The notes under the pieces: model-generated
What the model was told of the DNA's origin: nothing
Database searches by the model: none
The model's input: the letters and a program-made list of their open reading frames with translations, nothing else
Position numbers and translations under genes: made by a program
From: an uncultured Chloroflexia bacterium
GTDB lineage: Bacteria; Chloroflexota; Limnocylindria; Limnocylindrales; CSP1-4
Assembly (NCBI GenBank): GCA_963783055.1
Contig: CAWAMB010000004.1
Location: forward strand, 1,251,368 to 1,315,367
Reading direction: 5' to 3'
DNA length: 64,000 bases
Shown here: positions 4,558 to 64,000 of the stretch, piece after piece
Position numbering within the stretch: position 1 is the stretch's first letter
Layout of the letters: every line of letters begins with the position of its first letter

Positions 4558-5542
4558 ATGACGGCTCCCACCCAGCTCGGCGCGACGATGATCGCGACCC
4601 GCGATCTCGCCCGGACGTACAAGACTCGCGGCGGTGCCGTCGAGGCCGTCCGCGGCGTCGACCTGCGGGTCCACGCGGGCGAGATCTTCGGCTTCCTCGG
4701 CCCGAACGGAGCAGGGAAGACGACGACGCTCCGGATGCTCGCGACGCTGATCAAGCCCACGGCCGGCGAGGCACCGTCGCCGGCGCCGACCTCCGGACGC
4801 GAACCAGCCGAAGTCCGCCGCCGGATCGGCTACGTCCCGCAGGGCGGGTCCACCGATCCGGCCGAGACCGGTCGCGGGGAGCTCGTGCTTCAGGGCCAGC
4901 TGTACCGGATGTCGGCCAGCGCGGCCAAGGCCCGGGCCGCCGAGGTCCTGGCGGCCCTCGATCTCGAGGCTGCCGCGGACCGGCCGATCCAGACGTACTC
5001 CGGGCGGGATGAAGCGACGGCTGGACGTCGGGCTCGGGATCGTCCACCGGCCGCAGGTCCTGTTCCTCGACGAGCCCACCACGGGTCTCGATCCCCAGGC
5101 ACGGGCCCGGATGTGGGACGAGATCCGCAACCTGCGGGAGCTCGGCACCACCGTCTTCCTGACGACCCACTACCTCGAGGAGGCGGACGCGCTGTGCGAT
5201 CGCCTCGCGATCATCGACCAGGGCAGGATCGTCGCCGAGGGCACCTCCGACGAGCTGAAGCAGGCCGTCGCCGGCGACGTCGTGACGATCGGCGTGGACG
5301 GTGCCGGTGCTCGGGTGCTGGCGATCGTCGAGGCGCTGCCGTTCGTGCGCGAGGCCTCGCACGACGAGGAGAGCGGTCTCGTCCGGCTCTACGTCGATCG
5401 CGGCGAGGTCGCCGTGCCACAGCTGCTCCGCATGCTCGATGCGGCCGGCTACGCGCCGTCCTCGATCGCGCTCAACAAGCCCAGCCTCGACGACGTGTTC
5501 CTGCGCCAGACCGGGCGCTCGCTGCGCGAGGAGGCGGCGTGA
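4558..5542 (+). CDS. ABC transporter ATP-binding protein (DrrA-like), reading frame broken by a +1 shift at 5002-5004
   Basis: Walker [10 protein letters not shown] is in frame 1. The signature and Walker B ([31 protein letters not shown]) resume in frame 2 (ORF 5009..5542). Deleting one G from TCCGGGCGG restores YSGGMKRRL. AGGAGG lies 5 nt upstream of ATG 4558. Confidence 0.85.
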
Positions 5543-9109: not shown

Positions 9110-9969
9110 CGACCGAACGGGTGCTCGTGGCCGGGGCCGGGCTGATGGGTCATGGCATCGCCCAGGTGCTTGCGGCCACCGGACGATCCGTCGCCCTCTA
9201 TGAGCCGGACATCAGTCGGGCGACGGCGGGTCGCGACCGGATCGCCGCCAACCTCGAACGCTCCGTGACGAAGGGTCGGCTCGATGGCGCCGAGCGAGAC
9301 CTGATCGTGGCCCGAGTTGTGCCGACGGACGATCTGGCCGCCGCCGCCGACGTGGATCTCGTCGTCGAGGCCGTCTTCGAGGACGTCGGCGTGAAAGCCG
9401 CCCTCTGGACCGAGCTCGATCGGCGTGCCCCCGAGCGGGCGATCTTCGCCTCGAACACGTCGTCGATCGCCATCGACCGGCTCGCGGAGGCGGTGTCGGA
9501 TGCGCGCCGGTCGCGCTTCGTCGGGATGCACTTCTTCAGCCCCGTGCCCGTCATGCCCCTGATCGAGCTGATCCGGGGGTCGGCCACGAGCGACGAGACG
9601 GAGGCGGCGGTCCGATCGGTGGCGGCCGACATGGGCAAGCAGGTCATCGTCTCGGCCGATCGCCCGGGGTTCATCGTGAACCGGATCCTCATGCCGTTCC
9701 TGGCCGAGTCGATGCGGGCCTACGAGGAGGGCCTCGGGACAGCCGACGACATCGATGCGGGCGCGAAGGTCGGGCTGAACCATCCGATGGGTCCCCTCGA
9801 GCTGGCCGACTTCATCGGCCTCGACGTCTGCCTCGGGATCATGCGCGTCCTGCATGAGGGGTTCGGGCAGGCGCACTTCGCCCCGCCCGCCGTCCTCGTC
9901 CAGCTCGTCGAGGCGGGTCACCTCGGCCAGAAGACCGGGCGCGGGTTCCACACCTACCCGAGAGGCTGA
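9106..9969 (+). CDS. 3-hydroxybutyryl/3-hydroxyacyl-CoA dehydrogenase
   Basis: Tail of artefactual ORF 7015..9969 from ATG 9106 (ATGA overlap with the MFS stop). Motifs seen: VLVAGAGLMGHGIA, FASNTSS, HFFSPVPVMPLIE, NRILMP. Confidence 0.9.
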   Translation: MTTERVLVAGAGLMGHGIAQVLAATGRSVALYEPDISRATAGRDRIAANLERSVTKGRLDGAERDLIVARVVPTDDLAAAADVDLVVEAVFEDVGVKAALWTELDRRAPERAIFASNTSSIAIDRLAEAVSDARRSRFVGMHFFSPVPVMPLIELIRGSATSDETEAAVRSVAADMGKQVIVSADRPGFIVNRILMPFLAESMRAYEEGLGTADDIDAGAKVGLNHPMGPLELADFIGLDVCLGIMRVLHEGFGQAHFAPPAVLVQLVEAGHLGQKTGRGFHTYPRG

Positions 9970-9987: not shown

Positions 9988-12900
9988 TCAGGCGCGCCCG
10001 GCGAGCAGGCGCTCGACGACGGCCGCGACGGCCGCAATGTCGAACGGCTTGGCGAGGAGCTGGACGCCGTGCTCGCCGGCGAACCTGCGGAGCTCCGGGT
10101 TCAGGACGTCGCCGCTCATGAACGCGAAGCGCCTTCCGAGCTCCGGGTTGCCCAGGACCACGGCGTCGTAGAACTCGGTGCCGGTCATCCCGGCCATCCG
10201 GTGGTCGCACAGGATCGCGGCGGGCGGTTCGGCCGTGACGATGTCGAGCGCGGCCTGGCCCGTCATCGCAAGGACGGGCTCGTAGCCGGATCTGGACAGG
10301 ACGCGGGCGAGGAACTCGCGGATCGAGGGCTCGTCGTCGAGGACGAGGATGCGGTCACGGCCGGCGTCCGTCGGTGGCCTGGCGCCCGTCGTGGCCGCGC
10401 CGGCCGTCGCCGCGCCGGATGTCGGCGGCGACGGCGTAACGGGTGGCGGCGGGGACGATCGGGGCCCATCGACGGCGCCGGCGCCGTCAATGATCGTTCG
10501 ACCCGTCGGCAGCTCCATCACGAACACCGCACCGCCGCCGGGGTTGGGCTCGTGCCGGAGAGTGCCGCCGTGGCCGGCAACGATCCCGAACGACACAGAC
10601 AGCCCGAGCCCGGTCCCCTCGCCGGGTTGCTTGGACGTCACGAACGGGACGAAGAGCCGGTCGCGCATTGTCGGGGCAACGCCGGGGCCGTCATCGGAGA
10701 TCGCGATCCGGACCGTCGGCCCGTCCTCTGACATCCCCGTCCGGGCCTGGATCCGGATCGTGCCCGGCCGGCCCAGCTCCGAGATCGCCTGCGCCGCGTT
10801 GACGGTCAGGTTGACCAGCACCTGCTGGATCTGCGATCGGTCGATCGACAGGCGTGGGATGTCGTCCGGGATATCGACCTCGACCGTGAGGCTGTTGCGG
10901 GACAGGATGTAGGACTGGAGCGACATCACGCTCTCGACGAGCGGCCCGAGATCGGTCTCGATCCGCTCGGGCGGGCTCTGGCGAGCGAAGTCGAGCAGGT
11001 TCTGGACGATGTTCCTCGTCCGGTTCGCCTCCTGCACCAGGAGCTCGGCCTGATGGCGCAGGTCCGGTGGCAGGGCTGGATCGGTTCGGATGAGGTGGCT
11101 GAAGCCGACGATCGCCGCCAGCGGATTGTTCAGCTCATGGGCGACGCCGGCCACGAGCAAGCCGATCGCCTCCATCTTCTGGGCCTGGACGAGCTCGCCC
11201 TGCATCCGGCTCCGCTCCGTCAGGTCGCGGACGATGACCAGGGTCCGCGGCACGCCAGCGATCTCGATCGGGCGCAGGTCGACCTCTTCGGGGAAGGTCG
11301 AGCCGTCGAGCCGCCGGCCGATGCCTGTGTATTGGGTGAACCCAAGGGGATTGACGACGCCGAGGTTCGGGGCGGTTGGGTCCTCCACGACGAGGCGATC
11401 CACGGGCTGGCCGATCAGGGGCTCACCGTACAACCGGACGGCGGCGGGGTTGGCGTCGACGACGACCTCGTCGACCGACTGGACGATCAGCGCGTCCGGC
11501 GAGCTTTCGAACAGCTCGCGATAGCGGCGCTCGCCGGCGAGGATCTCCTCGCGCAGGCGCTGGTTCGCGAAGGAGATGTCGAGCACCCGGCCGATCGCAT
11601 CGAGCGTGCGCTCATCGAGCTCGAGCTCTGCGACGGGCTCGCGGAATACCGCGATCAGGATGGCGACCAGATTGCTGGCGTCTCGAATCGCGAATGCGGC
11701 GATCGTGCGATAGCCCTTCGCGTCCATGGCCGCGGCGGCCGCCGGGCTGAGGTGCCCCGGATCGAGGGAGGCAAGCAGCGACTGGGCGCCGTTGACCAAC
11801 GGGGCGGCCATCGGGGCGGACGAGAGCGGCCGTTCCAGCAGGGGCCGGGCCCAATCCGGGTCGATCCGGTGAACAGGGCCGAGCACGAGTTGGTCATCGA
11901 TGACCTGGCTGAGGCACGTGCCATCCGCGCCGATGACGTCGCGAAGGTCGACGAGGAGGCGCTCGACCGCGGTCCGGCCGGTCCCCAACGCGTCGGGCAG
12001 CCGGGTGAGCTCGACGAGCGCGCGCATCCGGCGGGTCAGGAGGCGCTCCTCGCTGAGGCCGCTCTCGACGGCCTGGAGGAGGCGGGCGTTCTCGAGGGAG
12101 GAGGCGATCGCGGCGGCGGCCTGGAGCAGGACCGACTGCGACGGCTCGCTCGGGCTTTCGTGGCGCCAGCCCAGGGCGACGATTCCCACCAGCCGGTCCT
12201 GGAGCCGAAGCCCGACGATGATCAGGTGCCGGATCCCGTCCGCCAGGACGGCCTCGCGAACATCCTCGCGGAGGGGGGCGGTTGCAACGTCGGCCGAAAT
12301 GACCGCCTCGGGCTCGCGGAGGGCGTGGGCGAGCGGACCGCCGAGCTGCCCGTAGGCGAGGATGACTGCCACCGTCTCCGGGCTCACGTTGCGGATGCCG
12401 ATCGCCTCGTAGGTCTCGTCGGAGGACGTGACGAGGCCCGCGTCGGCGCCCGTCGCACGACACAGGAGCTCCAGCGCCGTCTCGGCGACGTGCGTCTTCG
12501 TCCGGGACTGTCCGGTGGCGAGGACGATCGTGCCCAGGGCGGCCATCTCGCTGTCGAGACGCGCCGCGGCGGTCACGTCGCGGTTCACCGCCAGAACGGC
12601 GGAGGGCGCCCCGTCCCGATCGTGAAGGACCGTCACGATCGAGCTGACGGTGACATCGCGGCCGACGCGCGATCCTGTCAGCGGGTGTTGGACGACTCGC
12701 TGGCGCCAGACACCGTCGCGGTTCAGTGCGGAGGCTGCCGCCGCTCGGTCGATCGGCTGTCCGTTGACCTCGAGTGCCCGGAGGAGCGCCTCGATGGGGC
12801 GCCCCACGGCATCCGCGGCGGCGATGCCATAGAGACGCTCGGCCGCGGGGTTCCATACACGGACCAGGAATGCCCGATCGGTGATGATCATCGCGTCGAC

Positions 12901-16737: not shown

Positions 16738-17244
16738 GTGAGCGCAGGCATCGAGGGGGCCGTCTCCATCCGGCCGGTGACGATCGACGATCTCGAGGTC
16801 CTGATCGACATCTACCTCGACACGGCGATCCACCACGCCACGATCGATCCGGAGGTCTTCCACGTCCCGGAACGGGACGCGATCGCCGAACGCCTCCGGC
16901 CCCGGATCGACGGTCGCGGCAGGACCGGGGAGTATGTGGCGGCGATGCTCGACGGGCGGATGGTCGGCTCCGCCTCGATCGGGATCTCGGACCTGCCGCA
17001 CCCGGGCTCCATGCTCCGTCCCGTGCGCGAAGCGGAGTTCGGCGTGTCCGTCGTGGACGGCTTTCGCGGGCTCGGGATCGGGCGGGCGCTGATCGCCCAT
17101 CTGGAGGCATGGGCGGCCGAGCACGGCGTCGAGCGGGTCGTCCTGAACGTCGCCGAGGCGAACATCGACGCGATCCGGCTGTACCAGGCGATCGGCTATC
17201 GGGACGGCGACCGGCTGATGCGCAAGGCGGTGGTCCGGTCGTGA
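16738..17244 (+). CDS. GNAT family N-acetyltransferase
   Basis: 168-aa ORF. Acetyl-CoA motif VVDGFRGLGIGRALI, then VVLNVAEANIDAIRLYQAIGY. Confidence 0.8.
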   Translation: MSAGIEGAVSIRPVTIDDLEVLIDIYLDTAIHHATIDPEVFHVPERDAIAERLRPRIDGRGRTGEYVAAMLDGRMVGSASIGISDLPHPGSMLRPVREAEFGVSVVDGFRGLGIGRALIAHLEAWAAEHGVERVVLNVAEANIDAIRLYQAIGYRDGDRLMRKAVVRS

Positions 17245-55677: not shown

Positions 55678-55790
55678 GACTCACCAGTTGAGTCAGATCC
55701 GCCGCCAACACGCAGCGGTCGGAGTCAACTGCGCCCGAGCTGAGCGCGAAGTGCCGTCTTGTGACTCGACTGGCGAGTCGGCGCAAGTGC
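55678..55790. repeat. left copy of ~110-bp imperfect direct repeat (overlaps 3' end of the HTH-nuclease gene)
   Basis: Hand alignment to 56643-56754 gives about two-thirds identity. Shared core GTCAGATCCGCC. Hairpins GACTCA-N5-TGAGTC (55678-94) and GACTCG-N5-CGAGTC (55763-79). Confidence 0.5.
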
Positions 55791-56579
55791 CGTCGCCGCA
55801 TCGCCGTAGTCGCGGTACGGAAGGAGCGCTCGCCCGCCATCAACCCGCGGTCGTCGCAACCACGCGTCTCGGCGGCTGCGCGGATCGATCAGGACCACGG
55901 ACGGGTCAGGCTGAGGGAGCTCGGGATCGGCGATCCATCGCCCGAGTCGATCTGCACCACCCGGAAACGACTGCCTGACGAGATCGGCGCTGGCGGTCAG
56001 GCGTGTGTCGGCCTCCACGGTCGCGAGCAACGCGACGACTGGAACGATCCTCCGCGGCCGCCAGCCGAACTGGTCCGCCGCCGCCCGGCTCGAGCGGACG
56101 TACCAGCCGACCGTTCGCAGGAGTCGACCAGCGTCGTCGATCTGGGTCTTGACCTCGATCACCATCAACGCGGCGTCGGCCTGCCGCCAGGCCAGGATGT
56201 CGATCCAGCCGCGAACTCGGCCATCGCCGATCTCGACTTCCGTGCGAGTTGCCCAGCCGCGCCGCTCCAGCTGTCTGATGACGTACCCGCAACAACGGGC
56301 ATGGACGAGGTCGCGTTGCTCGCGTCGAGCACCGAGCCCGACCGGGTCGGCGTCGAGCGTGAGCCGGATTCCCAGATGGTCCAGGGCGACGGTCGCCAGG
56401 GCGACGTCGAGGTGTCGCTGACGTCCAGCTTCGAGCCGCTGGACCGCGGCCTGGTTCGTGCCGAGCCGGTCTGCCATCTCTCGTTCCGTCCAGCCGATCG
56501 CCTTCCGCGTGGCGCGGATCGACGCTCCGAGCCGTGCTCCGATCGTTGCCGGTGCGGGCTCGCGCTCAGGCCGTCCCAT
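55725..56579 (-). CDS. XRE-type HTH domain fused to a YraN/PD-(D/E)xK nuclease-like core (paralog of 14335..15156)
   Basis: 284-aa ORF. HTH: IRATRKAIGWTEREMADRLGTNQAAVQRLEAG. Core: GRVRGWIDILAWRQADAALMVIEVKTQI. Confidence 0.7.
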   Translation of the reverse strand: MGRPEREPAPATIGARLGASIRATRKAIGWTEREMADRLGTNQAAVQRLEAGRQRHLDVALATVALDHLGIRLTLDADPVGLGARREQRDLVHARCCGYVIRQLERRGWATRTEVEIGDGRVRGWIDILAWRQADAALMVIEVKTQIDDAGRLLRTVGWYVRSSRAAADQFGWRPRRIVPVVALLATVEADTRLTASADLVRQSFPGGADRLGRWIADPELPQPDPSVVLIDPRSRRDAWLRRPRVDGGRALLPYRDYGDAATALAPTRQSSHKTALRAQLGRS

Positions 56580-56928: not shown

Positions 56929-57432
56929 GTGGTCGAGCACATCTCGATCGTCGTCAATGGACAGCCGCGGGAGGGGGATGTCGAGCCGAGACGGATGCTC
57001 GTCCAGTTCCTCCGTGAGGACCTCGAGCTGACCGGCACCCATGTCGGCTGCGACACGAGCCAGTGCGGCGCGTGCACCGTGACGATCGACGGCAAGGCGG
57101 TCAAGAGCTGCACGATGCTTGCCGTCCAGGCCGACGGCGCCAACGTCAGGACGATCGAGGGGATGCAGGCCGCCGACGGCGCGCTCCACGCCCTCCAGGA
57201 GGGATTCTGGGCGAAGCACGGACTCCAGTGCGGGTTCTGCACGCCGGGCATGATCATGGCCGCCTCCGACCTCCTCGCCCGCAACGCCGACCCGACCGAC
57301 GACGAGATCCGGCACGCGATCGAAGGCAACATCTGCCGCTGCACGGGCTATCACAACATCGTCGCGGCGATTCGCGATGCGGCGTCCACGATGCGGGCCG
57401 GCGCGACTGCTCCGTCGACCGCCACCGCCTGA
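56929..57432 (+). CDS. coxS: [2Fe-2S]-binding small subunit of a molybdenum hydroxylase (CoxS-like)
   Basis: Motifs seen: [29 protein letters not shown]. Confidence 0.9.
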
Positions 57433-57434
57433 CC

Positions 57435-57483
57435 GCCGAACCGGCACGAACGCCGAACCGGCACGAACCGCCGAACCGGCACG
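57435..57483. repeat. tandem repeat GCCGAACCGGCACG(AA) x3, period 17-18 bp, in the coxS-coxL spacer
   Basis: Read directly. Copies start at 57435, 57452 and 57470. Confidence 0.7.
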
Positions 57484-57520
57484 CTCCGCACGCACGCAGC
57501 GACGACGAAGGAGAGCAGCG

Positions 57521-59935
57521 ATGGCCACCGACGTCCAGGACGTCCTCGGCAGCTCCATCAAGCGGGTCGAGGATCCGCGCTTCATCACCGGCAAGGGCCG
57601 CTATCTCGACGACATCGTGCTGACCGGGATGGCCCACCTCGCCATCCTCCGCAGCCCGTACGCCCACGCCAACATCCGGTCGGTCGACACGTCGAAGGCC
57701 AAGGGCTTGCCCGGCGTCATCGCGGTGATCGTCGGTGCCGACATCCCGTACAACCCCCTGCCGATGGCCTGGCCGGCGGGCGGCTCGTCGGGCGTCACGA
57801 ACAACGTCAGCACGCCGCGGACCCTCGCCACCGACTCGGTCAAATGGACCGGCGAGGGCGTCGCCGCGGTCGTCGCCGAGACCCCCGAGCAGGCGGTCGA
57901 CGCCCTCGACGCGATCGAGGTCGACTACGAGCCGCTGCCCGCCGTCGTCGATGCCGAGAAGGCGACCCAGCCGGGCGCACCGCAGCTTCACGACAACGCC
58001 CCGAACAACGTCGTCTTCGACTGGACGGTCGGCGACAAGGACGGGACGGAGGCGGCGCTCAAGGACGCCGAGGTCGTCGTCAGGGAGCGCCTCGTCAACC
58101 ATCGCCTGATCCCGAACCCGCTGGAGGTCCGCGGTGACATCGGCTGGTACAACCCCGGGACCGAGGAGTACACGGTCTGGATGTCCAGCCAGACGCCGCA
58201 CATCCAGCGGCTGCTGCTGACGGCGTTCGTGACCGGCATCCCCGAGCACAAGGTGCGGGTGATCGCGCCCGACGTCGGCGGCGCCTTCGGATCCAAGATC
58301 TTCTGTTACGCCGACATGGCGCTGGTCATGTTCGCGAGCAAGCTGATCGGCGGCGGACGACCGGTGAAGTGGGTCGAGAGCCGGCGCGAGAGCTACGGCT
58401 CGACGATCCACGGCCGCGATCACATCACCTACGTCGAGATCGCCGGCAAGCGCGATGGCACCGTGACCGGGGTCAAGGTCAAGACGTTCGCCAACCTCGG
58501 CGGCCGCCTGTCGACGATCGGACCCGGCATCCCGACCACGCTCTACGGCCGCGTCCTGTCGGGTTGCTACAAGATCCCGAACGTCTACGCCGAGGTCACC
58601 GGCGTCTATACGAACACGACCTTCGTCGACGCCTACCGCGGCGCCGGCCGGCCGGAGGCCACGTACGTCATCGAACGGGCGATGGACCTCTTCGCCAACG
58701 AGATCGGCATGGACAAGGCCGAGCTCCGTCGCAAGAACTTCATCCCGAAGGACGCGTTCCCGTACGACAACCCGTCGGGCCTCGGGACCGCCGTCAACGG
58801 CGAAAAGATCTACGTCGACTCGGGCAACTACGAGCCGGCGATGGACATGGCGCTCAAGACCGCCGGCTACGCCGATCTCGCCGCCAAGAAGGCCGAGGCG
58901 AAGAGCCGCGGCAAGCTGCTCGGGATGGGCCTGTCCACCTACATCGAGGTGTGTGGCGTCGCGCCCTCCAAGTGGATCGGTGCCGTCGGTGAGGGCTGGG
59001 GCGCGGCGATGTGGGAGTCGTCGAACGTCAAGGTCCACCTGACGGGCAAGGTGATCGTCACGATGGGCACCCAGCCCCAGGGTCAGGGCCACGAGACGAC
59101 CTACAGCCAGATCGTCGCGCACGAGCTCGGCATCCCGATGGACGACATCGTGATCCAGCACTCCGACACGCAGGGCACGCCGTTCGGCTACGGGTCGTAC
59201 GGCAGCCGGACGTCGTCGGTCGGCAGCACGGCCGCGATCAAGGCGACCGACAAGATCAAGGACAAGGCCCGGCGCTACGCCGCCCACATGCTCGAGGCGT
59301 CGCCCGACGACATCGAGATCGTCGGCGCCGAGTACCGGGTCAAGGGCTCTCCCGAGAAGAAGAAGACGATCCAGGAGATCGCGTTCGCGCTCGACCTGGG
59401 CTTCTCTCTGCCGGCCGGCATGGAGCCGTATCTCGACGAGACGGCCTACTACGACACGCCGAACTGCACCTGGCCGTTCGGGACGCATATCGCGATCGTC
59501 GAGGTCGACGAGGAGACCGGCGAGACGGACCTGGTCCGCTACATCGCGGTCGACGACGTCGGCAAGAAGATCAACCCGATGATCGTCGACGGCCAGCTCC
59601 ATGGCGGCATCGCCCAGGGCGTCGGCCAGGCCCTCTGGGAGCAGGCGGTCTACGCCGACGACGGCCAGCTCCTGTCCGGCTCGATGATGGACTACGCCCT
59701 GCCCCGAGCCTCGTGGCTGCCGAACTTCGAGCTCGACGAGACGGTCACGCCGTCGCCGGTCAACCCGCTCGGCGTCAAGGGCGTCGGCGAGGCCGGCTGC
59801 ATCGCGTCGACCGCCGCGGTCGCCAACGCCGTCAACGACGCCTTGGCCCCGCTCGGGATCAAGCACCTCGACATGCCGTTCACCGGCCAGACCGTCTGGC
59901 GGGCGATCCAGTCCGCGAAGGGAGCCCGGGCATGA
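57521..59935 (+). CDS. coxL: molybdopterin-binding large subunit, form-II CoxL-like (AYRGAGR signature)
   Basis: ATG 57521. Tail of ORF 57377..59935. Motifs seen: FVDAYRGAGRPEA, GTQPQGQGHETT, GVKGVGEAG. Confidence 0.95.
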   Translation: MATDVQDVLGSSIKRVEDPRFITGKGRYLDDIVLTGMAHLAILRSPYAHANIRSVDTSKAKGLPGVIAVIVGADIPYNPLPMAWPAGGSSGVTNNVSTPRTLATDSVKWTGEGVAAVVAETPEQAVDALDAIEVDYEPLPAVVDAEKATQPGAPQLHDNAPNNVVFDWTVGDKDGTEAALKDAEVVVRERLVNHRLIPNPLEVRGDIGWYNPGTEEYTVWMSSQTPHIQRLLLTAFVTGIPEHKVRVIAPDVGGAFGSKIFCYADMALVMFASKLIGGGRPVKWVESRRESYGSTIHGRDHITYVEIAGKRDGTVTGVKVKTFANLGGRLSTIGPGIPTTLYGRVLSGCYKIPNVYAEVTGVYTNTTFVDAYRGAGRPEATYVIERAMDLFANEIGMDKAELRRKNFIPKDAFPYDNPSGLGTAVNGEKIYVDSGNYEPAMDMALKTAGYADLAAKKAEAKSRGKLLGMGLSTYIEVCGVAPSKWIGAVGEGWGAAMWESSNVKVHLTGKVIVTMGTQPQGQGHETTYSQIVAHELGIPMDDIVIQHSDTQGTPFGYGSYGSRTSSVGSTAAIKATDKIKDKARRYAAHMLEASPDDIEIVGAEYRVKGSPEKKKTIQEIAFALDLGFSLPAGMEPYLDETAYYDTPNCTWPFGTHIAIVEVDEETGETDLVRYIAVDDVGKKINPMIVDGQLHGGIAQGVGQALWEQAVYADDGQLLSGSMMDYALPRASWLPNFELDETVTPSPVNPLGVKGVGEAGCIASTAAVANAVNDALAPLGIKHLDMPFTGQTVWRAIQSAKGARA

Positions 59936-60789
59936 TCCCCAACACGTTCGACTACCAACGGGCGAGCTCGCTCGACGAGGCACTCGGCCTCGTCGGCACG
60001 CCCGGCACGAAGGTGATTGCCGGCGGGATGAGCCTCCTGCCGCTGATGAAGCTCCGTCTGGCCAACCCGGAGCGGCTCGTCGACATCGGGCGACTCGCCG
60101 AGCTCCGCGGCGTGCGCCAGCTCGACGATGGCCGGCTGGCGATCGGGGCGTTGACGACCTACTCGGAGCTGGCGGACTCGGCGGCTCGCCACTACGGATT
60201 GCTCGGCGATGCGCTGCCCGACATCGGCGACGTCCAGGTCCGCAACCGCGGCACGGTCGGTGGCGCGGTCGCCCACTGCGACCCGGCATCCGACCTGCCG
60301 GCCGTCCTGCTCGCCCTCGACGCCGAGATCGTGGCGCGCTCCACGCGGGGCGAGCACGTCTACGCCGCCGACGGCTTCTTCACGGGCGCCTTCTCGACGG
60401 CTCTCGCCGACGACGAGCTCGTCACGGAGATCCGCCTGCCGGGTCCCCGGGACGACGCCGGGTCGGCGTACCAGGCGCTGTCGCAGCGAGCCTCGGGCTA
60501 CTCGATCGTCGGCGTGGCGGCCGTGATCATCAAGGAGAACGGCAGCGCGATCACGAAGGCCGGGATCGCCCTGACCGGGGTGGGCGACGCGCCGTACCGG
60601 GCATCGGCGGTGGAGGCCGCCCTCCTCGGCAACGAGGGCACGCCCGAGTCGATCGCCGCGGCGGCCGCCCACGCGACCGACGGCCAGACGGTCAACGGCG
60701 ACATCCACGCCGACAGCGAGTACCGGGCGGCGATGGCCATCGCCTACACGAAGCGGGCGATCACGGCCGCGCTCGGCCGGCTCGGCTGA
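59932..60789 (+). CDS. coxM: FAD-binding medium subunit (CoxM-like)
   Basis: ATG 59932 (ATGA overlap). Motifs seen: KVIAGGMSLLPLMKLRL, VRNRGTVGGAVAH. Confidence 0.9.
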   Translation: MIPNTFDYQRASSLDEALGLVGTPGTKVIAGGMSLLPLMKLRLANPERLVDIGRLAELRGVRQLDDGRLAIGALTTYSELADSAARHYGLLGDALPDIGDVQVRNRGTVGGAVAHCDPASDLPAVLLALDAEIVARSTRGEHVYAADGFFTGAFSTALADDELVTEIRLPGPRDDAGSAYQALSQRASGYSIVGVAAVIIKENGSAITKAGIALTGVGDAPYRASAVEAALLGNEGTPESIAAAAAHATDGQTVNGDIHADSEYRAAMAIAYTKRAITAALGRLG

Positions 60790-60829
60790 CCTCCCGCAGC
60801 CCCAACGCGGATCAGCGGTTCGACGGCGG

Positions 60830-61879
60830 GTGCGGCTCGAGCGTCTGACGCCGGGTCGTCGCCCGCCCGCCGAGCTCGTCGGCGCCGTCCTCGCCCGCGA
60901 CCTGGTCGTCGGCGGCCGTCGCTGGGCGAAGGGCCGGCGGCTGACGGCCGACGACCTCGCCGCGTGGGCGGCCGACCCGTCGCTGGGGGTCGGGCCGGTC
61001 GCGGTCATCGTCCTCGACGCCGGTGACCTCCACGAGGACGACGCCGCACTCCGCCTCGCGGACGCGGTCGCGGGCTCCGGGTTGACGCGGCGCGGGCCGG
61101 TCCAGAGCCGGGTCGACCTCCTGGCGGCTCACGATGGCGTGCTCCACGTCCGAGCCGCCGAGCTCGAGCGGCTCAACCGGGTCGATCCGCTCGAGGTCTT
61201 CACCCGGCTCGACGGCTCGATCGTGGCTGCCGGCGACGTCGTGGCGAGCGTCAAGATCGCGCCGCACGCCGTCGAAGCCGCGGTCGTGGACGCGGGCCTG
61301 CGGGCGGCGGGCGGCGGTCAGCGGCCGCTCGTCCGGGTCGCGCCGTTCCGTCCGATGCGGGTCGCGGTCATCGTCAAGGAGTCGCTCCGGGCAGCGGACC
61401 GCGAGCGGTTCGAGGCCAGCGTTCGGGTCAAGGTCGAAAGTCTCGGCTCGGAGATCGTCGCCATCGACTACGTGGCCGACGAGGACGAGGCGGTGGCGGC
61501 AGCGCTCGACCGGCGGGCCCGGGGCAGGGGACGGGCGAGTGTCATCCTGACCGCGGGCGGCCGGTCGACCGACCCGTCGGACCCGTTCTTTGCCGCGATC
61601 GCCGGCCTCGGCGGGCGAGTGGTCCGGCATGGCGTGCCGGCCCATCCCGGCTCGATGCTCTGGCTGGCGCGCATCGGCCGGACCGCGATCCTGGGCCTGC
61701 CGACGTGCGGCGCCTACGCCAAGGCGACGGCCGCCGACCTCCTGTTGCCGCGGCTCTTGACCGGCGAGCCTCCGACGCGGCGGACCGTGTCGCACCTCGG
61801 TCACGGGGGCGTCCTGACTCGCGAGATGCGCTTCCGATTCCCGCCGTATGCCCGCGAGCTGGACGCGCCGGACGGCTGA
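60830..61879 (+). CDS. molybdopterin-binding (MoeA/MoCF_biosynth-like) accessory protein
   Basis: 349-aa ORF. Sequence: VILTAGGRSTDPSDPFFAAI...VRHGVPAHPGSMLWLARIGRTAILGLP. Confidence 0.65.
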   Translation: MRLERLTPGRRPPAELVGAVLARDLVVGGRRWAKGRRLTADDLAAWAADPSLGVGPVAVIVLDAGDLHEDDAALRLADAVAGSGLTRRGPVQSRVDLLAAHDGVLHVRAAELERLNRVDPLEVFTRLDGSIVAAGDVVASVKIAPHAVEAAVVDAGLRAAGGGQRPLVRVAPFRPMRVAVIVKESLRAADRERFEASVRVKVESLGSEIVAIDYVADEDEAVAAALDRRARGRGRASVILTAGGRSTDPSDPFFAAIAGLGGRVVRHGVPAHPGSMLWLARIGRTAILGLPTCGAYAKATAADLLLPRLLTGEPPTRRTVSHLGHGGVLTREMRFRFPPYARELDAPDG

Positions 61880-63294
61880 TGGACGCGCCGAGCGTGGCGA
61901 TTGGCGGCGCGGTCCTGAGAGCAGACCCCGGGTCGGTCGGTGTGCTCGCTGCAACCGAGCGGACCGCGATGTGCAGGTTCGTTCGCGGGCTCGGCATCGG
62001 AGAGGATCAGGTAGAGGACTGCGTCCAGGAGGCCCTGACCCGGCTCTGGCTGCAGCTGGATCGTGGTGTCTTGATCGCGGACCCCAAGGGGTGGACCTAC
62101 CGGACCCTCTATCGGATCGCGATCGACGAGCACCGCCGACGCCGTCGTCAGGGTGAAGCGTTCGGGCGAGTGTTCGATCGTGCGGCGCATACACCGGGAT
62201 TCGACGCTGCCGATCTCATCGTGACGCGAGATGAGCTGGACCGCCTGCCGACCCGCCGGCGACAGGTGCTCCGTCTGCGGTACCTGGCGGGCATGCGCTA
62301 CGACGAGATCGGCTCGACGCTCGGGATCGCGCCCTCAGCGGCACGCAGCCATGCGACGCAGGCGCTCGACGCGCTCCGCGAACGCGTCCTGAAGACCGTT
62401 GCCAAGGCGGGCGCCCCGGGTCTGGCTCCCGATGCGTTCGACGGGCGCCAACGGGGATGGATCGAACCCCTGGGTCAACTCGAGTCCCCGCCCGGCGGAT
62501 GGCTCGATCCGGGCGGAGTGGACGTCGACCCGACGGGACGGATCTGGGTCGTTGACGCGGGTCATGACGCGATCGCCATCTTCTCCACAGAAGGGCGGTT
62601 CCTGGAGCGCTGGGGCAAGCCGGGCTCCGAGCCGGGCCGGTTCTCGTTCCGTCGCGCCCTCGGGAACGTGGGCGATGTAAGGTTCGCGGCCGACGGTGGC
62701 TTCTACGTCGCGGACAACGGGAACCGGCGTATCCAGCGGTTCGATTTGGAGCGCCGCCTCGTTACGACGTGGGGCCGCCGGGGTCGCGAGGCCGGCGAGT
62801 TCCTCGACCCGTGGTCGGTCCGGCTCGACGGCCTCGGACGCGTGTACGTGTCGGATGCAATTCGCGATGACATCCAGGTCTTCACGCCGGACGGTCGCCA
62901 CCTTCACACGATCGGTCGCCGGGGCTCCGGCCGCGGGCAGCTCGACTTCCAGGGCGACGCCATCGTGGCCGGCGACCGGATGTACGTCGCCGATCACGCG
63001 AACTCGCAAATCGCGATCTTCTCGGCTGAAGGCACGTTCATCCGAGTGGCGGGAGTCGGCCACCTGCGCGGGCCGGACGGACTCGATGTCGGCCCCGACG
63101 GCAACCTCTACGTCGCCGACACACGCGGACGCCGCTTTCTGGTGATCGCACCCGACGGCACTGTGCTCGACGCCTGGCCGGGCCACGCCTGGCTCCTGCG
63201 CGCCCTCCCCGATGGCCGGATCCTGACGTCGGGAGGCGGTCAGGTCACGATCCATCGCCGGCTTTCCGGCGCGGATCTCGCCGTCGACGGCTGA
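61879..63294 (+). CDS. ECF-type sigma-70 family factor fused to a C-terminal NHL-repeat beta-propeller
   Basis: ATG 61879 (TGATG overlap). Tail of ORF 61705..63294. Region 2: DCVQEALTRLW...TLYRIAIDEHRR. Region 4: LPTRRRQVLRLRYLAGMRYDEIGSTLGIAPSAARSH. Five to six NHL repeats follow (GGFYVADNGNRRIQRF; GRVYVSDAIRDDIQVF; DRMYVADHANSQIAIF; GNLYVADTRGRRFLVI). No TM segment. Confidence 0.8.
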   Translation: MDAPSVAIGGAVLRADPGSVGVLAATERTAMCRFVRGLGIGEDQVEDCVQEALTRLWLQLDRGVLIADPKGWTYRTLYRIAIDEHRRRRRQGEAFGRVFDRAAHTPGFDAADLIVTRDELDRLPTRRRQVLRLRYLAGMRYDEIGSTLGIAPSAARSHATQALDALRERVLKTVAKAGAPGLAPDAFDGRQRGWIEPLGQLESPPGGWLDPGGVDVDPTGRIWVVDAGHDAIAIFSTEGRFLERWGKPGSEPGRFSFRRALGNVGDVRFAADGGFYVADNGNRRIQRFDLERRLVTTWGRRGREAGEFLDPWSVRLDGLGRVYVSDAIRDDIQVFTPDGRHLHTIGRRGSGRGQLDFQGDAIVAGDRMYVADHANSQIAIFSAEGTFIRVAGVGHLRGPDGLDVGPDGNLYVADTRGRRFLVIAPDGTVLDAWPGHAWLLRALPDGRILTSGGGQVTIHRRLSGADLAVDG

Positions 63295-63385
63295 GCGTTT
63301 CGGCGATCCGGCGCGTCGTTCTCATATGGGGCCGATGGCCGCATGTCCCGCCCGGACGGTCGGGCAGAGGGTGTGCATCGTGGCA

Positions 63386-64000
63386 ATGCAGCGATCGTTG
63401 ACGCTTGGAGTCGGCCGAACGTCGGCCGCGACCTGGATCCTGCTCGCGGGCCTCGCGGGCCTCGCGGGCCTCGCGGGCTGTAGCTCGACGGCCGTCGCAC
63501 CTCCTTCGGCGATCGCGTCGCCTTCGGCCGGCACCATCACTCCGCCCGCCAGTGCGTCCGCCAGCCGAGCCCAGTCCACTGCTCCGTCGGCGACGCCGAA
63601 CCCGACACCGCTGGCTGTCGCCGCGGGGGAACCGTGGATTGCCTACCAGGGTGGATCGGGAGGGCCGCCGCGGATTCGGTTCGTCCGGCCCGACGGAAGC
63701 GATGACCACGCACTGGCGGCAAGCGGCGTACCGGCTGCCCGCGAGAAGCCAGACTGGTCGCCGGATGGTCTGCGCGTCGCGTTTCGCGTTGAGGACGAGG
63801 ACGGCACGCTCGACATCTGGGTCGTGAACGCCGACGGATCCGATCCCGAGCGCGTCGTCGACTGCGCCGCACCGTGTGCCTGGGCGGACGACCCCGCCTG
63901 GTCCCCGGACGGCAGATCGATTGCCTACCAGCAAGGCACGGCGGTCGGGGGGGACGGACTCGGTCTCGGGACGATCGAGGTCGTCGATCTGGACACGAAC
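63386..64000 (+). CDS. lipoprotein with TolB/PD40-like beta-propeller repeats (partial, runs off window)
   Basis: Not in the ORF track because there is no stop. Hand translation: MQRSLTLGVGRTSAATWILLAGLAGLAGLAGLAGCSS (lipobox)...PDWSPDGLRVAF...LDIWVVNADGSDPERV...PAWSPDGRSIAY. Confidence 0.7.
   Translation, partial: MQRSLTLGVGRTSAATWILLAGLAGLAGLAGCSSTAVAPPSAIASPSAGTITPPASASASRAQSTAPSATPNPTPLAVAAGEPWIAYQGGSGGPPRIRFVRPDGSDDHALAASGVPAAREKPDWSPDGLRVAFRVEDEDGTLDIWVVNADGSDPERVVDCAAPCAWADDPAWSPDGRSIAYQQGTAVGGDGLGLGTIEVVDLDTN
63443..63478 (+). repeat. perfect 9-bp tandem repeat CTCGCGGGC x4 inside the lipoprotein signal peptide ((LAG)4 before the lipobox Cys)
   Basis: Read directly. Copies are at 63443, 63452, 63461 and 63470. 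Confidence 0.8.

Follow-up and report, generated by a model that had tools for sequence, protein, structure and literature searches.

Close to the end of the 64-kb stretch of DNA analysed here, which we call the window and which is part of a 1.89-Mb contig from an uncultured Chloroflexia bacterium, lies a gene for a sigma factor of the extracytoplasmic function (ECF) type fused in frame to an NHL beta-propeller. All positions are given in window numbering unless another locus is named. An open reading frame at 61705-63294 on the plus strand contains an internal ATG at 61879, from which the coding sequence (61879..63294) extends for 471 codons to a TGA stop at 63292-63294. This assignment draws on the reading frame itself, on Pfam and NCBIfam models, and on 17 orthologous clusters with the same architecture. 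We refer to the gene and its product as sigma-NHL. From its N-terminus the protein comprises sigma region 2 (amino acids (aa) 18-100; 61930..62178, plus strand), which consists of three helices bearing the motifs DCVQEALTRLW and W.YR..YR.A.DEHRRRRR and is recognized both by Sigma70_r2 and in the AlphaFold2 model, and sigma region 4 (aa 117-176; 62227..62406, plus strand), in which Sigma70_r4_2 and Sigma70_r4 match and AlphaFold2 places helices at 125-176, with SAARSHATQA as the recognition helix. A flexible tether rich in Pro, Gly, and Ala (aa 177-192; 62407..62454, plus strand) follows, and the remainder is a six-bladed NHL propeller (aa 193-465; 62455..63273, plus strand) supported by NHL, SGL, and DUF5128 matches, by AlphaFold2, and by Foldseek and PDB comparisons.

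The scores of family models make this protein an ECF (group 4) member of the sigma-70 family. In Pfam, Sigma70_r2 matches aa 30-90 with 29.6 bits (cut-off 24), and Sigma70_r4_2 matches aa 118-166 with 45.3 bits (cut-off 25.7) alongside Sigma70_r4 at aa 118-168, both of the latter above their gathering scores. The NCBIfam sigma70-ECF model TIGR02937 reaches 61.3 bits against a cut-off of 42.9, and the Pfam and NCBIfam scan of the fusion protein returned no match to sigma region 3 or region 1. No specific subfamily or equivalog cut-off was passed in the NCBIfam scan, the nearest subfamily being SigE-fam_strep with 74.5 bits, below its cut-off of 141.6. The C-terminal half scores 66.6 bits with NHL (cut-off 20) and has overlapping matches to SGL and DUF5128, which are other six-bladed propeller families. 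The SGL match spans aa 365-433 only, so that the protein is not assigned to the SGL lactonases, and the ScyF equivalog is likewise not reached in NCBIfam (149 bits, cut-off 350). Nothing in the sequence qualifies as a membrane helix or signal peptide, the highest 19-residue Kyte-Doolittle window being 1.27 against a usual threshold of about 1.6, and the whole fusion protein is therefore cytoplasmic. An earlier note on this DNA had read out a single uninterrupted frame of 471 codons, sigma regions 2 and 4 at the N-terminus, an NHL-type propeller at the C-terminus, and no hydrophobic helix; the reading-frame analysis, the searches with family models, the six blades of the AlphaFold2 model, and the hydropathy profile agree with it on each of these points.

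AlphaFold2, run with an alignment of 18 sequences, gave a mean predicted local distance difference test score (pLDDT) of 81 and a predicted template modelling score (pTM) of 0.68. The sigma part is modelled as 2 helical bundles, the sigma2 helices at aa 18-37, 45-61, and 69-100 (together aa 18-100) with pLDDT of about 86-90 and the sigma4 helices within aa 117-176 with pLDDT of about 80, and the linker between them (aa 92-115) is disordered with pLDDT below 50, as is the tether to the propeller (aa 177-190). The propeller itself has 24 strands in six blades (aa 194-462) with pLDDT above 90, and the strand at aa 194-200 closes the last blade, blade 6. In Foldseek, where the alignment covered the propeller only, the best matches are the NHL domains of Thin, TRIM71, and TRIM2 with a target TM-score (template modelling score) of about 0.82; sequence and structure matches in the PDB are to Thin, TRIM71/LIN-41, TRIM2/3, and Brat at 21-28% identity, TRIM71 with an E value of 4.5e-40. 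Further propeller matches are PAL by Foldseek and PknD (1rwi) in the PDB. The sigma part is distant from ECF structures that have been solved, the best being 5uxx (E 5e-8) and Mycobacterium tuberculosis SigL (8e-7).

A search of 5.8 billion protein clusters recovered at least 17 further sigma-NHL clusters of 443-481 aa and 50-82% identity, drawn from Logan, JGI, ENA, and NCBI assemblies and including metagenome-assembled genomes (MAGs) named Candidatus Limnocylindrales and Chloroflexia. These orthologues align end to end, and the junction varies only in the length (11-31 aa) and the sequence of the tether. The earlier note had named a split into 2 genes as a finding that would overturn the fusion; the orthologue survey came out the other way, and since the same unbroken fusion occurs in 17 further clusters from independent assemblies an indel specific to the window is ruled out. 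Sigma-NHL is thus a real, conserved gene in uncultured Chloroflexota, and its family is small. In GTDB the fusion is carried by one species-level genome. A profile search of 1.84 billion representatives at 50% clustering has one full-length fusion representative (P0003) among the matches listed, in a search that was swamped by giant multi-NHL proteins and is therefore insensitive to more distant sigma-NHL fusions. Scans of genome and metagenome contigs found one true fusion locus (on the same contig as locus L001) and 2 NHL-only loci, and searches with the sigma part only, which omitted even known fusions, say nothing on other fused members of the clade. The apparent NHL-only match at L008 is a fusion with a frameshift between sigma regions 2 and 4 (at about 6730), and that at L009 starts 121 nt from the contig start, so that its sigma part has probably been cut off. 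There is also a frameshift at the C-terminus of the L001 fusion (about 9255-9400), and the L007 fusion (4935-5115) is without its N-terminus.

The surroundings of the fusion were compared in 7 loci, six of which have upstream sequence (the window, L001/L003, L002, L006, L007, and L008), the L009 contig starting within the fusion gene. A gene for a PD40 (TolB-like) lipoprotein stands 3' of the fusion in all 7, and in 5 of the 6 loci with upstream sequence (the window, L001/L003, L002, L006, and L007) the pair sits in a cox-type operon. The invariant unit is sigma-NHL plus PD40, and the cox-type operon is its usual host. So far as the contigs reach, the order is coxS-like, coxL-like, coxM-like, MoCF_biosynth, sigma-NHL, PD40, and then sometimes a STAND ATPase (AAA_16 plus TPR), followed by coxD-like AAA, coxE-like VWA, XdhC, and NTP_transf_3 genes. 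The window holds, all on the plus strand, a coxS-like gene (56929-57432; Pfam Fer2_2; 2Fe-2S), a coxL-like gene for the molybdopterin subunit (57521-59935; MoCoBD_1/2), a coxM-like gene (59935-60789; FAD_binding_5 plus CO_deh_flav_C), a MoCF_biosynth gene (60830..61879; Pfam PF00994) that ends in a TGA at 61877-61879, and, after the fusion, the 5' part of the PD40 gene (63386..64000), which leaves the window. Bona fide form-I carbon monoxide dehydrogenases have the signature AYXCSFR; because the coxL-like protein carries AYRGAGR instead, we take the host enzyme to be of the form-II/xanthine-dehydrogenase family.

The MoCF_biosynth gene lies directly 5' of the fusion in L001, L002, L006, and L007 as it does in the window, where its stop and the sigma-NHL start share one base (TGATG). 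In the window, L001, and L002 the fusion shares bases with the gene before it, and in L006 8 nt separate the two, an arrangement that suggests translational coupling of sigma-NHL to the cox-type operon. The fusion proteins of the window and L001 are 57% identical, and their PD40 proteins 52%. No anti-sigma-type gene is adjacent to the fusion in the window or in the orthologous loci; its neighbours are MoCF_biosynth, PD40, AAA/VWA/XdhC genes, and sometimes a STAND ATPase (AAA_16/NB-ARC plus TPR), and none has an anti-sigma domain. What had been read from the window at the outset about this neighbourhood, namely a start overlapping the stop of a cox-cluster gene, no anti-sigma gene alongside, and a TolB-like lipoprotein as the next gene, holds in full, and for the second point it holds in the orthologous loci too. 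That next gene starts at 63386, and its product has a PD40 match and the lipobox LAGLAG-C.

When the intergenic regions between fusion and PD40 gene are aligned across the 7 loci, one conserved element stands out of otherwise diverged sequence: CT(G/A)A(G/A)C(G/A)(T/C)T-N13-15-CGTC. It begins at the fusion stop codon, or 2-3 nt past it, in 7 of 7 loci, ahead of the PD40 gene. In the window this ECF-type promoter motif occupies 63291..63317 on the plus strand, with a -35-like element CTGAGCGTT at 63291-63299 that contains the TGA stop, a 14-nt spacer, and a -10-like CGTC at 63314-63317, and it lies 94 nt before the PD40 start codon. The strict expression, which was built from these seven sites only, has one match per fusion locus, and in the 64-kb window one match is observed against 0.19 expected from shuffles. 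Classical ECF promoters have the form AAC...CGT. Our motif can be read as GA(G/A)C-N17-CGTC and then has the spacing of a classical ECF promoter. An autoregulatory copy ahead of the fusion gene was looked for in the window and in L008 and not found. A scan for intrinsic terminators found none between the genes, and a scan for sigma-70-type promoters gave nothing meaningful. A second copy of the motif, TGAGCGAACGCACGACGGCGATCGTC, is intergenic at L001 15590-15615, ahead of that cluster's NTP_transf_3 (MocA-like) gene, and the regulon may extend to molybdenum-cofactor maturation.

The sigma core of the fusion belongs, by its sequence, within a large Chloroflexota/Limnocylindrales clade of stand-alone ECF sigma factors. 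A query with the sigma part brought up stand-alone ECF sigmas that are 165-266 aa long and about 50% identical to it; a profile of fused and stand-alone sigmas matched at least 286 clusters, each of them from a metagenome or a Chloroflexota MAG. Alignment shows that the region 2 residues of the fusion are common to the stand-alone paralogues and that the SAAR.HA core of the region 4 recognition helix is conserved throughout, so that the DNA-recognition segments W.(Y/F)R...R..(M/I)D..R of region 2.4 and SAAR(S/A)HAT of region 4.2 are common to fused and stand-alone proteins. This stand-alone clade itself appears to be undescribed. Four of its loci were examined (L010, L011, L012, and L013). In three of them (L010, L011, and L012) the sigma stop overlaps the start of a gene for a single-pass SBP_bac_3 protein (L010 7570-8535, L011 7558-8613, L012 6594-7658), whose short cytoplasmic N-terminus (MDDERIERALR...) leads through one membrane helix to a solute-binding ectodomain of the SBP_bac_3 type. 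No anti-sigma Pfam domain is listed for these three proteins, and we regard them as putative anti-sigma factors. The next gene in each of the three encodes a lipoprotein that combines a propeller of PQQ type with an NHL propeller at its C-terminus, and a PD40 gene lies immediately 5' of the sigma gene in 2 of the 3 (L011 and L012). At L013 the sigma factor is paired with a Beta-lactamase-domain protein instead. No stand-alone paralogue is present in the window or in the searched parts of the L001/L003 and L002 contigs.

The motif recurs at the stand-alone loci. The strict form lies 82 nt upstream of the stand-alone sigma gene in L010 and on the stop codon of the gene following the sigma gene in L013. 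A relaxed form in which A is allowed at the last two -35 positions, CT(G/A)A(G/A)C(G/A)(T/C/A)(T/A)-N13-15-CGTC, precedes the first gene of the operon in L011, L012, and L013 and the PQQ+NHL lipoprotein gene in L010, and the sites at these four loci are 62-93 nt from start codons. Its background is about 1 per 150 kb per strand. Elsewhere in the window the relaxed form matches at 16739, where a coding region begins and we put the match down to chance, and at 11132 on the minus strand. From the positions shared by the fusion and stand-alone loci we conclude that the motif is the clade's predicted cognate promoter.

Outside the fusions, the propellers most like the fused one also belong with ECF pathways. 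Best are the PQQ+NHL proteins P0030 and P0031 (44% identity), which have the architecture of the clade lipoproteins, and next are P0021 and P0022 (about 40%), in which a cytoplasmic N-terminal region of about 100 aa and one membrane helix precede two tandem extracytoplasmic NHL propellers. The P0021 gene (L014 5360-8301) directly follows another, unrelated ECF sigma gene with a 4-nt overlap. By its layout the P0021/P0022 architecture looks like that typical of an anti-sigma factor, and these proteins may form a class of NHL-sensing anti-sigma factors. Taken together with the PQQ+NHL relatives, they imply that this NHL subfamily recurs as an extracytoplasmic component of ECF pathways in these lineages. 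Because the closest relatives of the fused NHL are extracytoplasmic propellers, the fusion appears to have moved an envelope-type domain into the cytoplasm; compared with its relatives the fused propeller has shed both the export signal and the PQQ domain that goes with it, and the fusion loci lack the membrane partner. The lipoprotein propellers of L010 and L011 are acidic, with an isoelectric point (pI) of about 4.4, whereas the fused propellers are mostly near neutral, at about 5-7.

Conservation within the fusion family is highest in the propeller, whose mean pairwise identity is 66% against 58% for sigma4, 54% for sigma2, and 25% for the tether. A comparison of 17 fusions with 9 extracytoplasmic paralogue propellers picked out 24 positions at which the residue never varies among the fusions and is seldom found in the paralogues; 19 of these lie in strand A or the D-to-A loop and 11 in strand A itself (P about 2e-5 each). 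Among the fusion-specific residues are D215, D266, R268, W312, S313, R315, D360, H373, D400, D403, W438, and R441. A ring of charged residues takes the place of the small residue, the canonical Ala, of the strand-A motif G-V-A-V-D: D215 in blade 1, R268 in blade 2 (which also has D266), R315 in blade 3 (also W312 and S313), D403 in blade 5 (also D400), and R441 in blade 6 (also W438). Blade 4 keeps A361, with Q358 and D360 just before it and H373 in its B-C loop. Propellers have their A strands around the central channel, with the D-A and B-C loops making up the top face. The alignment and the predicted secondary structure together suggest a family-specific charged site at the channel entrance. 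The sigma part, in which fusion members carry 0-2 cysteines, has no invariant one.

If these elements form one circuit, transcription of the upstream operon would yield sigma-NHL, sigma-NHL would bring RNA polymerase to the promoter located at the stop codon of its own gene, and this promoter would switch on the PD40 gene and probably also the followers that no terminator separates from it, the coxD/coxE/xdhC-type maturation genes. We consider these first three steps, from the upstream operon through sigma-NHL and its promoter to PD40 and probably the maturation genes, to be likely on the sequence comparisons given above. The propeller would have been captured from envelope proteins of its own pathway, with its innermost strands remodelled, and it would take the place of the missing anti-sigma factor as an on-board input domain. 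In that role it could bind a cytoplasmic ligand or partner, and the binding would permit or block sigma activity, in parallel with the C-terminal extensions of ECF41 and ECF42. Four observations are consistent with such a built-in regulator. The clade's membrane partner, the putative anti-sigma factor, is missing from the fusion loci; no other part of the protein is as conserved as the NHL; charged residues specific to the fusions sit in the innermost strands; and related propellers form the ectodomain of the anti-sigma-type protein P0021 beside an ECF sigma, as they do in the similar P0022. By analogy with ECF41, ECF42, and ECF57, and from the pattern of conservation, we would give gating of sigma activity by the propeller about an even chance. 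Taken as a whole, a sigma-NHL with a target promoter at its stop codon and with the NHL as on-board input is the best explanation we can offer, and we lean modestly towards it. The most specific version, in which a relocated envelope NHL with a charged ring acts as the on-board sensor of a one-component sigma factor that couples a form-II carbon monoxide dehydrogenase-like operon to PD40 and maturation genes, is a tentative proposal that we hold to be possible.

Several points weigh against this reading. The L008 pair lies outside any cox cluster, beside genes of a two-component system, and the cox link is therefore frequent and not obligatory. The frameshifts in the L001 and L008 orthologues may be sequencing errors, or they may be decay. 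The promoter is assigned from comparative positions only, and a stand-alone paralogue elsewhere in the genome could use the site; moreover, the motif was relaxed after one paralogue site had been seen. The AlphaFold2 output that bears on the propeller relative to regions 2 and 4 consists of pLDDT and the pTM of 0.68 only, with the tether predicted to be disordered, and the 18-sequence alignment is too small for covariation analysis. Finally, the channel-facing placement of the fusion-specific residues comes from general propeller architecture and not from coordinates.

The first alternative to be weighed is a simple cascade in which the sigma factor is constitutively active, its output is set by how much protein the upstream operon makes, and the NHL does an unrelated job such as scaffolding, partner binding, or catalysis. 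In its favour, the fusion gene lacks a promoter motif and directly adjoins or overlaps the gene before it, transcriptionally regulated ECFs without anti-sigma factors are known (PMC8999054), and the tether is long, unconserved, and predicted to be disordered. The propeller also has partial matches to lactonase- and lyase-type propellers (SGL with 43 bits, PAL by Foldseek), but no catalytic signature was identified in it. The cascade also leaves unexplained why sigma and propeller are covalently fused in every orthologue and why the clade's membrane partner is lost where the two are fused, and it sits poorly with NHL relatives that form the ectodomain of an anti-sigma-type protein beside an ECF sigma. 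We therefore regard it as rather unlikely.

A second alternative is that the fusion is a decoy or relic: a stand-alone paralogue elsewhere would serve the promoter, and the fusion would compete for the site or for core polymerase, or would act through its NHL only. Since the DNA-recognition residues are largely common to the fusion and the stand-alone paralogues, both should read the same motif, and the window is only 64 kb of a 1.89-Mb contig. Yet purifying selection clearly acts on the sigma2 and sigma4 residues of the fusion family, the promoter stands in cis to the fusion gene in 7 of 7 loci, including one outside the cox context, and the window and the searched parts of the related contigs hold no paralogue. 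On this evidence a decoy is improbable.

We find it slightly more improbable still that the NHL binds nucleic acid, in the manner of the NHL domains of TRIM71, Brat, and Mei-P26, which bind RNA, and so makes an additional contact with upstream DNA or the nascent transcript. The idea has its appeal, because the best PDB matches are RNA-binding TRIM-NHL domains (TRIM71 with the E value given above, and a target TM-score of 0.8) and because fusion-specific Arg and Trp residues occupy top and inner positions of the blades. However, the propeller is near neutral, with acidic and basic residues equally numerous among the fusion-specific ones, nothing around the promoter is conserved beyond the -35/-10 motif, and the likeness to TRIM-NHL (TRIM71/LIN-41, Thin, TRIM2/3, and Brat) is one of general fold and repeat only, the latter domains being eukaryotic RNA- or protein-binding modules of E3 ligases. 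That a lost stop codon or an indel merged 2 separate genes, as the indel errors reported elsewhere by the earlier note and the frameshifts at the L001 C-terminus and in the L008 sigma region might lead one to suspect, has next to no chance of being right given an unbroken fusion of 443-481 aa in 17 clusters from four independent sources at 50-82% identity.

The preferred reading, a sigma factor with an on-board propeller input, extends a theme that is known from other ECF groups. C-terminal extensions occur in 19 groups, SnoaL-like and TPR domains, Cys-rich motifs, DUF1835, and multiple transmembrane segments among them (PMC7826278), and groups with such an extension and without an anti-sigma factor are treated as regulated by the extension (PMC7826278, PMC8999054). 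With about 295 aa after region 4, in 17 clusters, the fusion belongs to this kind by the definition of Casas-Pastor et al. 2021, which requires a conserved extension longer than 50 aa behind region 4 and a conserved neighbourhood free of anti-sigma factors. Closest in organization are ECF41, with SnoaL-like extensions as in M. tuberculosis SigJ, and ECF42, with TPR extensions, which like the fusion combine a sigma2-sigma4 core with a conserved cytoplasmic extension, have no anti-sigma gene, and are called "one-component" (PMC7826278, PMC8999054). The extension of the fusion differs from theirs in being a six-bladed NHL with no SnoaL or TPR Pfam match, and its tether is unconserved, the fusion gene has no cognate motif upstream of itself, and the sigma core is distant from SigJ (E 0.003).

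ECF57 of the Planctomycetes (formerly ECF01-Gob) resembles the fusion in joining an ECF sigma to repeats of beta-propeller type; its extension has WD40-like repeats for which control by protein interaction has been proposed, the mechanism being uncharacterised, and two conserved cysteines link its sigma2 and sigma4 (PMC8999054). The fusion, in contrast, has an NHL and no WD40 Pfam match, comes from Chloroflexota and not from Planctomycetes, and has no invariant cysteine. ECF57 extensions are also much longer, often with membrane helices. The stand-alone clade (L010, L011, and L012) is alike in its sigma core, about 50% identical, in the residues of the recognition helix, in the motif, and in its association with an NHL and, in L011 and L012, with PD40; there, however, a separate lipoprotein carries the NHL out of the cytoplasm and the locus includes a membrane partner, whereas the fusion has a cytoplasmic NHL with neither partner nor PQQ domain. 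In P0021 and P0022 a propeller about 40% identical to the fused one is apparently the input domain of a signalling protein, as the NHL sensor is in M. tuberculosis PknD, but those propellers lie outside the membrane and would work through a transmembrane anti-sigma factor or kinase, and the fusion has no membrane segment.

Full-text literature searches found no published description of a sigma-NHL or anti-sigma-NHL protein, and the main text of the ECF reclassification paper (PMC7826278; supplements aside) mentions neither NHL domains nor propellers nor Chloroflexi. The earlier note knew of no characterised sigma-NHL architecture either, and our searches agree, with the proviso that a WD40-like propeller extension had already been described for ECF57. 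The predicted promoter at the stop codon, the probable derivation of the NHL from envelope proteins of its own pathway, and the conserved position inside a cox-type operon go beyond that note and are, in our view, the points of greatest weight. The sigma-NHL fusion is thus apparently undescribed.

ECF sigmas are the largest class of alternative sigma factors, and to our knowledge signal sensing in the groups without an anti-sigma factor is largely unknown. The sigma-NHL family offers a compact and testable case, with a propeller extension, an ancestor system for comparison, a 27-nt candidate promoter, and a short list of fusion-specific residues. If the reading is right, it would also show evolution short-circuiting a signalling pathway through the transfer of an extracytoplasmic input domain into the cytoplasm, and one-protein sigma/promoter pairs that are orthogonal to the host could be useful in synthetic circuits. 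Its immediate reach is limited, since the family is small and confined to uncultured Chloroflexota.

Some further features of the host locus deserve mention. About 350 nt upstream of the coxS-like gene, and divergent from it, lies a gene for an HTH_3 (XRE-type) regulator (55728-56579, minus strand), which is a candidate regulator of the host operon and hence, indirectly, of sigma-NHL expression. The sigma-NHL gene has a third-position GC of 0.81 and the cox-type genes around it (56929-61879) have values of 0.90-0.96, a difference that fits either later entry of the sigma-NHL/PD40 pair into the operon or lower expression. A STAND ATPase gene follows PD40 at L002 4583-6898 (AAA_16 plus TPR, between PD40 and the coxD-like gene) and at L009 2220-4577 (NB-ARC plus TPR), and its product could be a further regulator. 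In the window, the region of the PD40 gene that encodes the signal peptide contains, at about 63437-63475, a GC-rich unit GGCCTCGCG in three tandem copies, giving LAGLAGLAGLAGC, a tract that may be prone to slippage.

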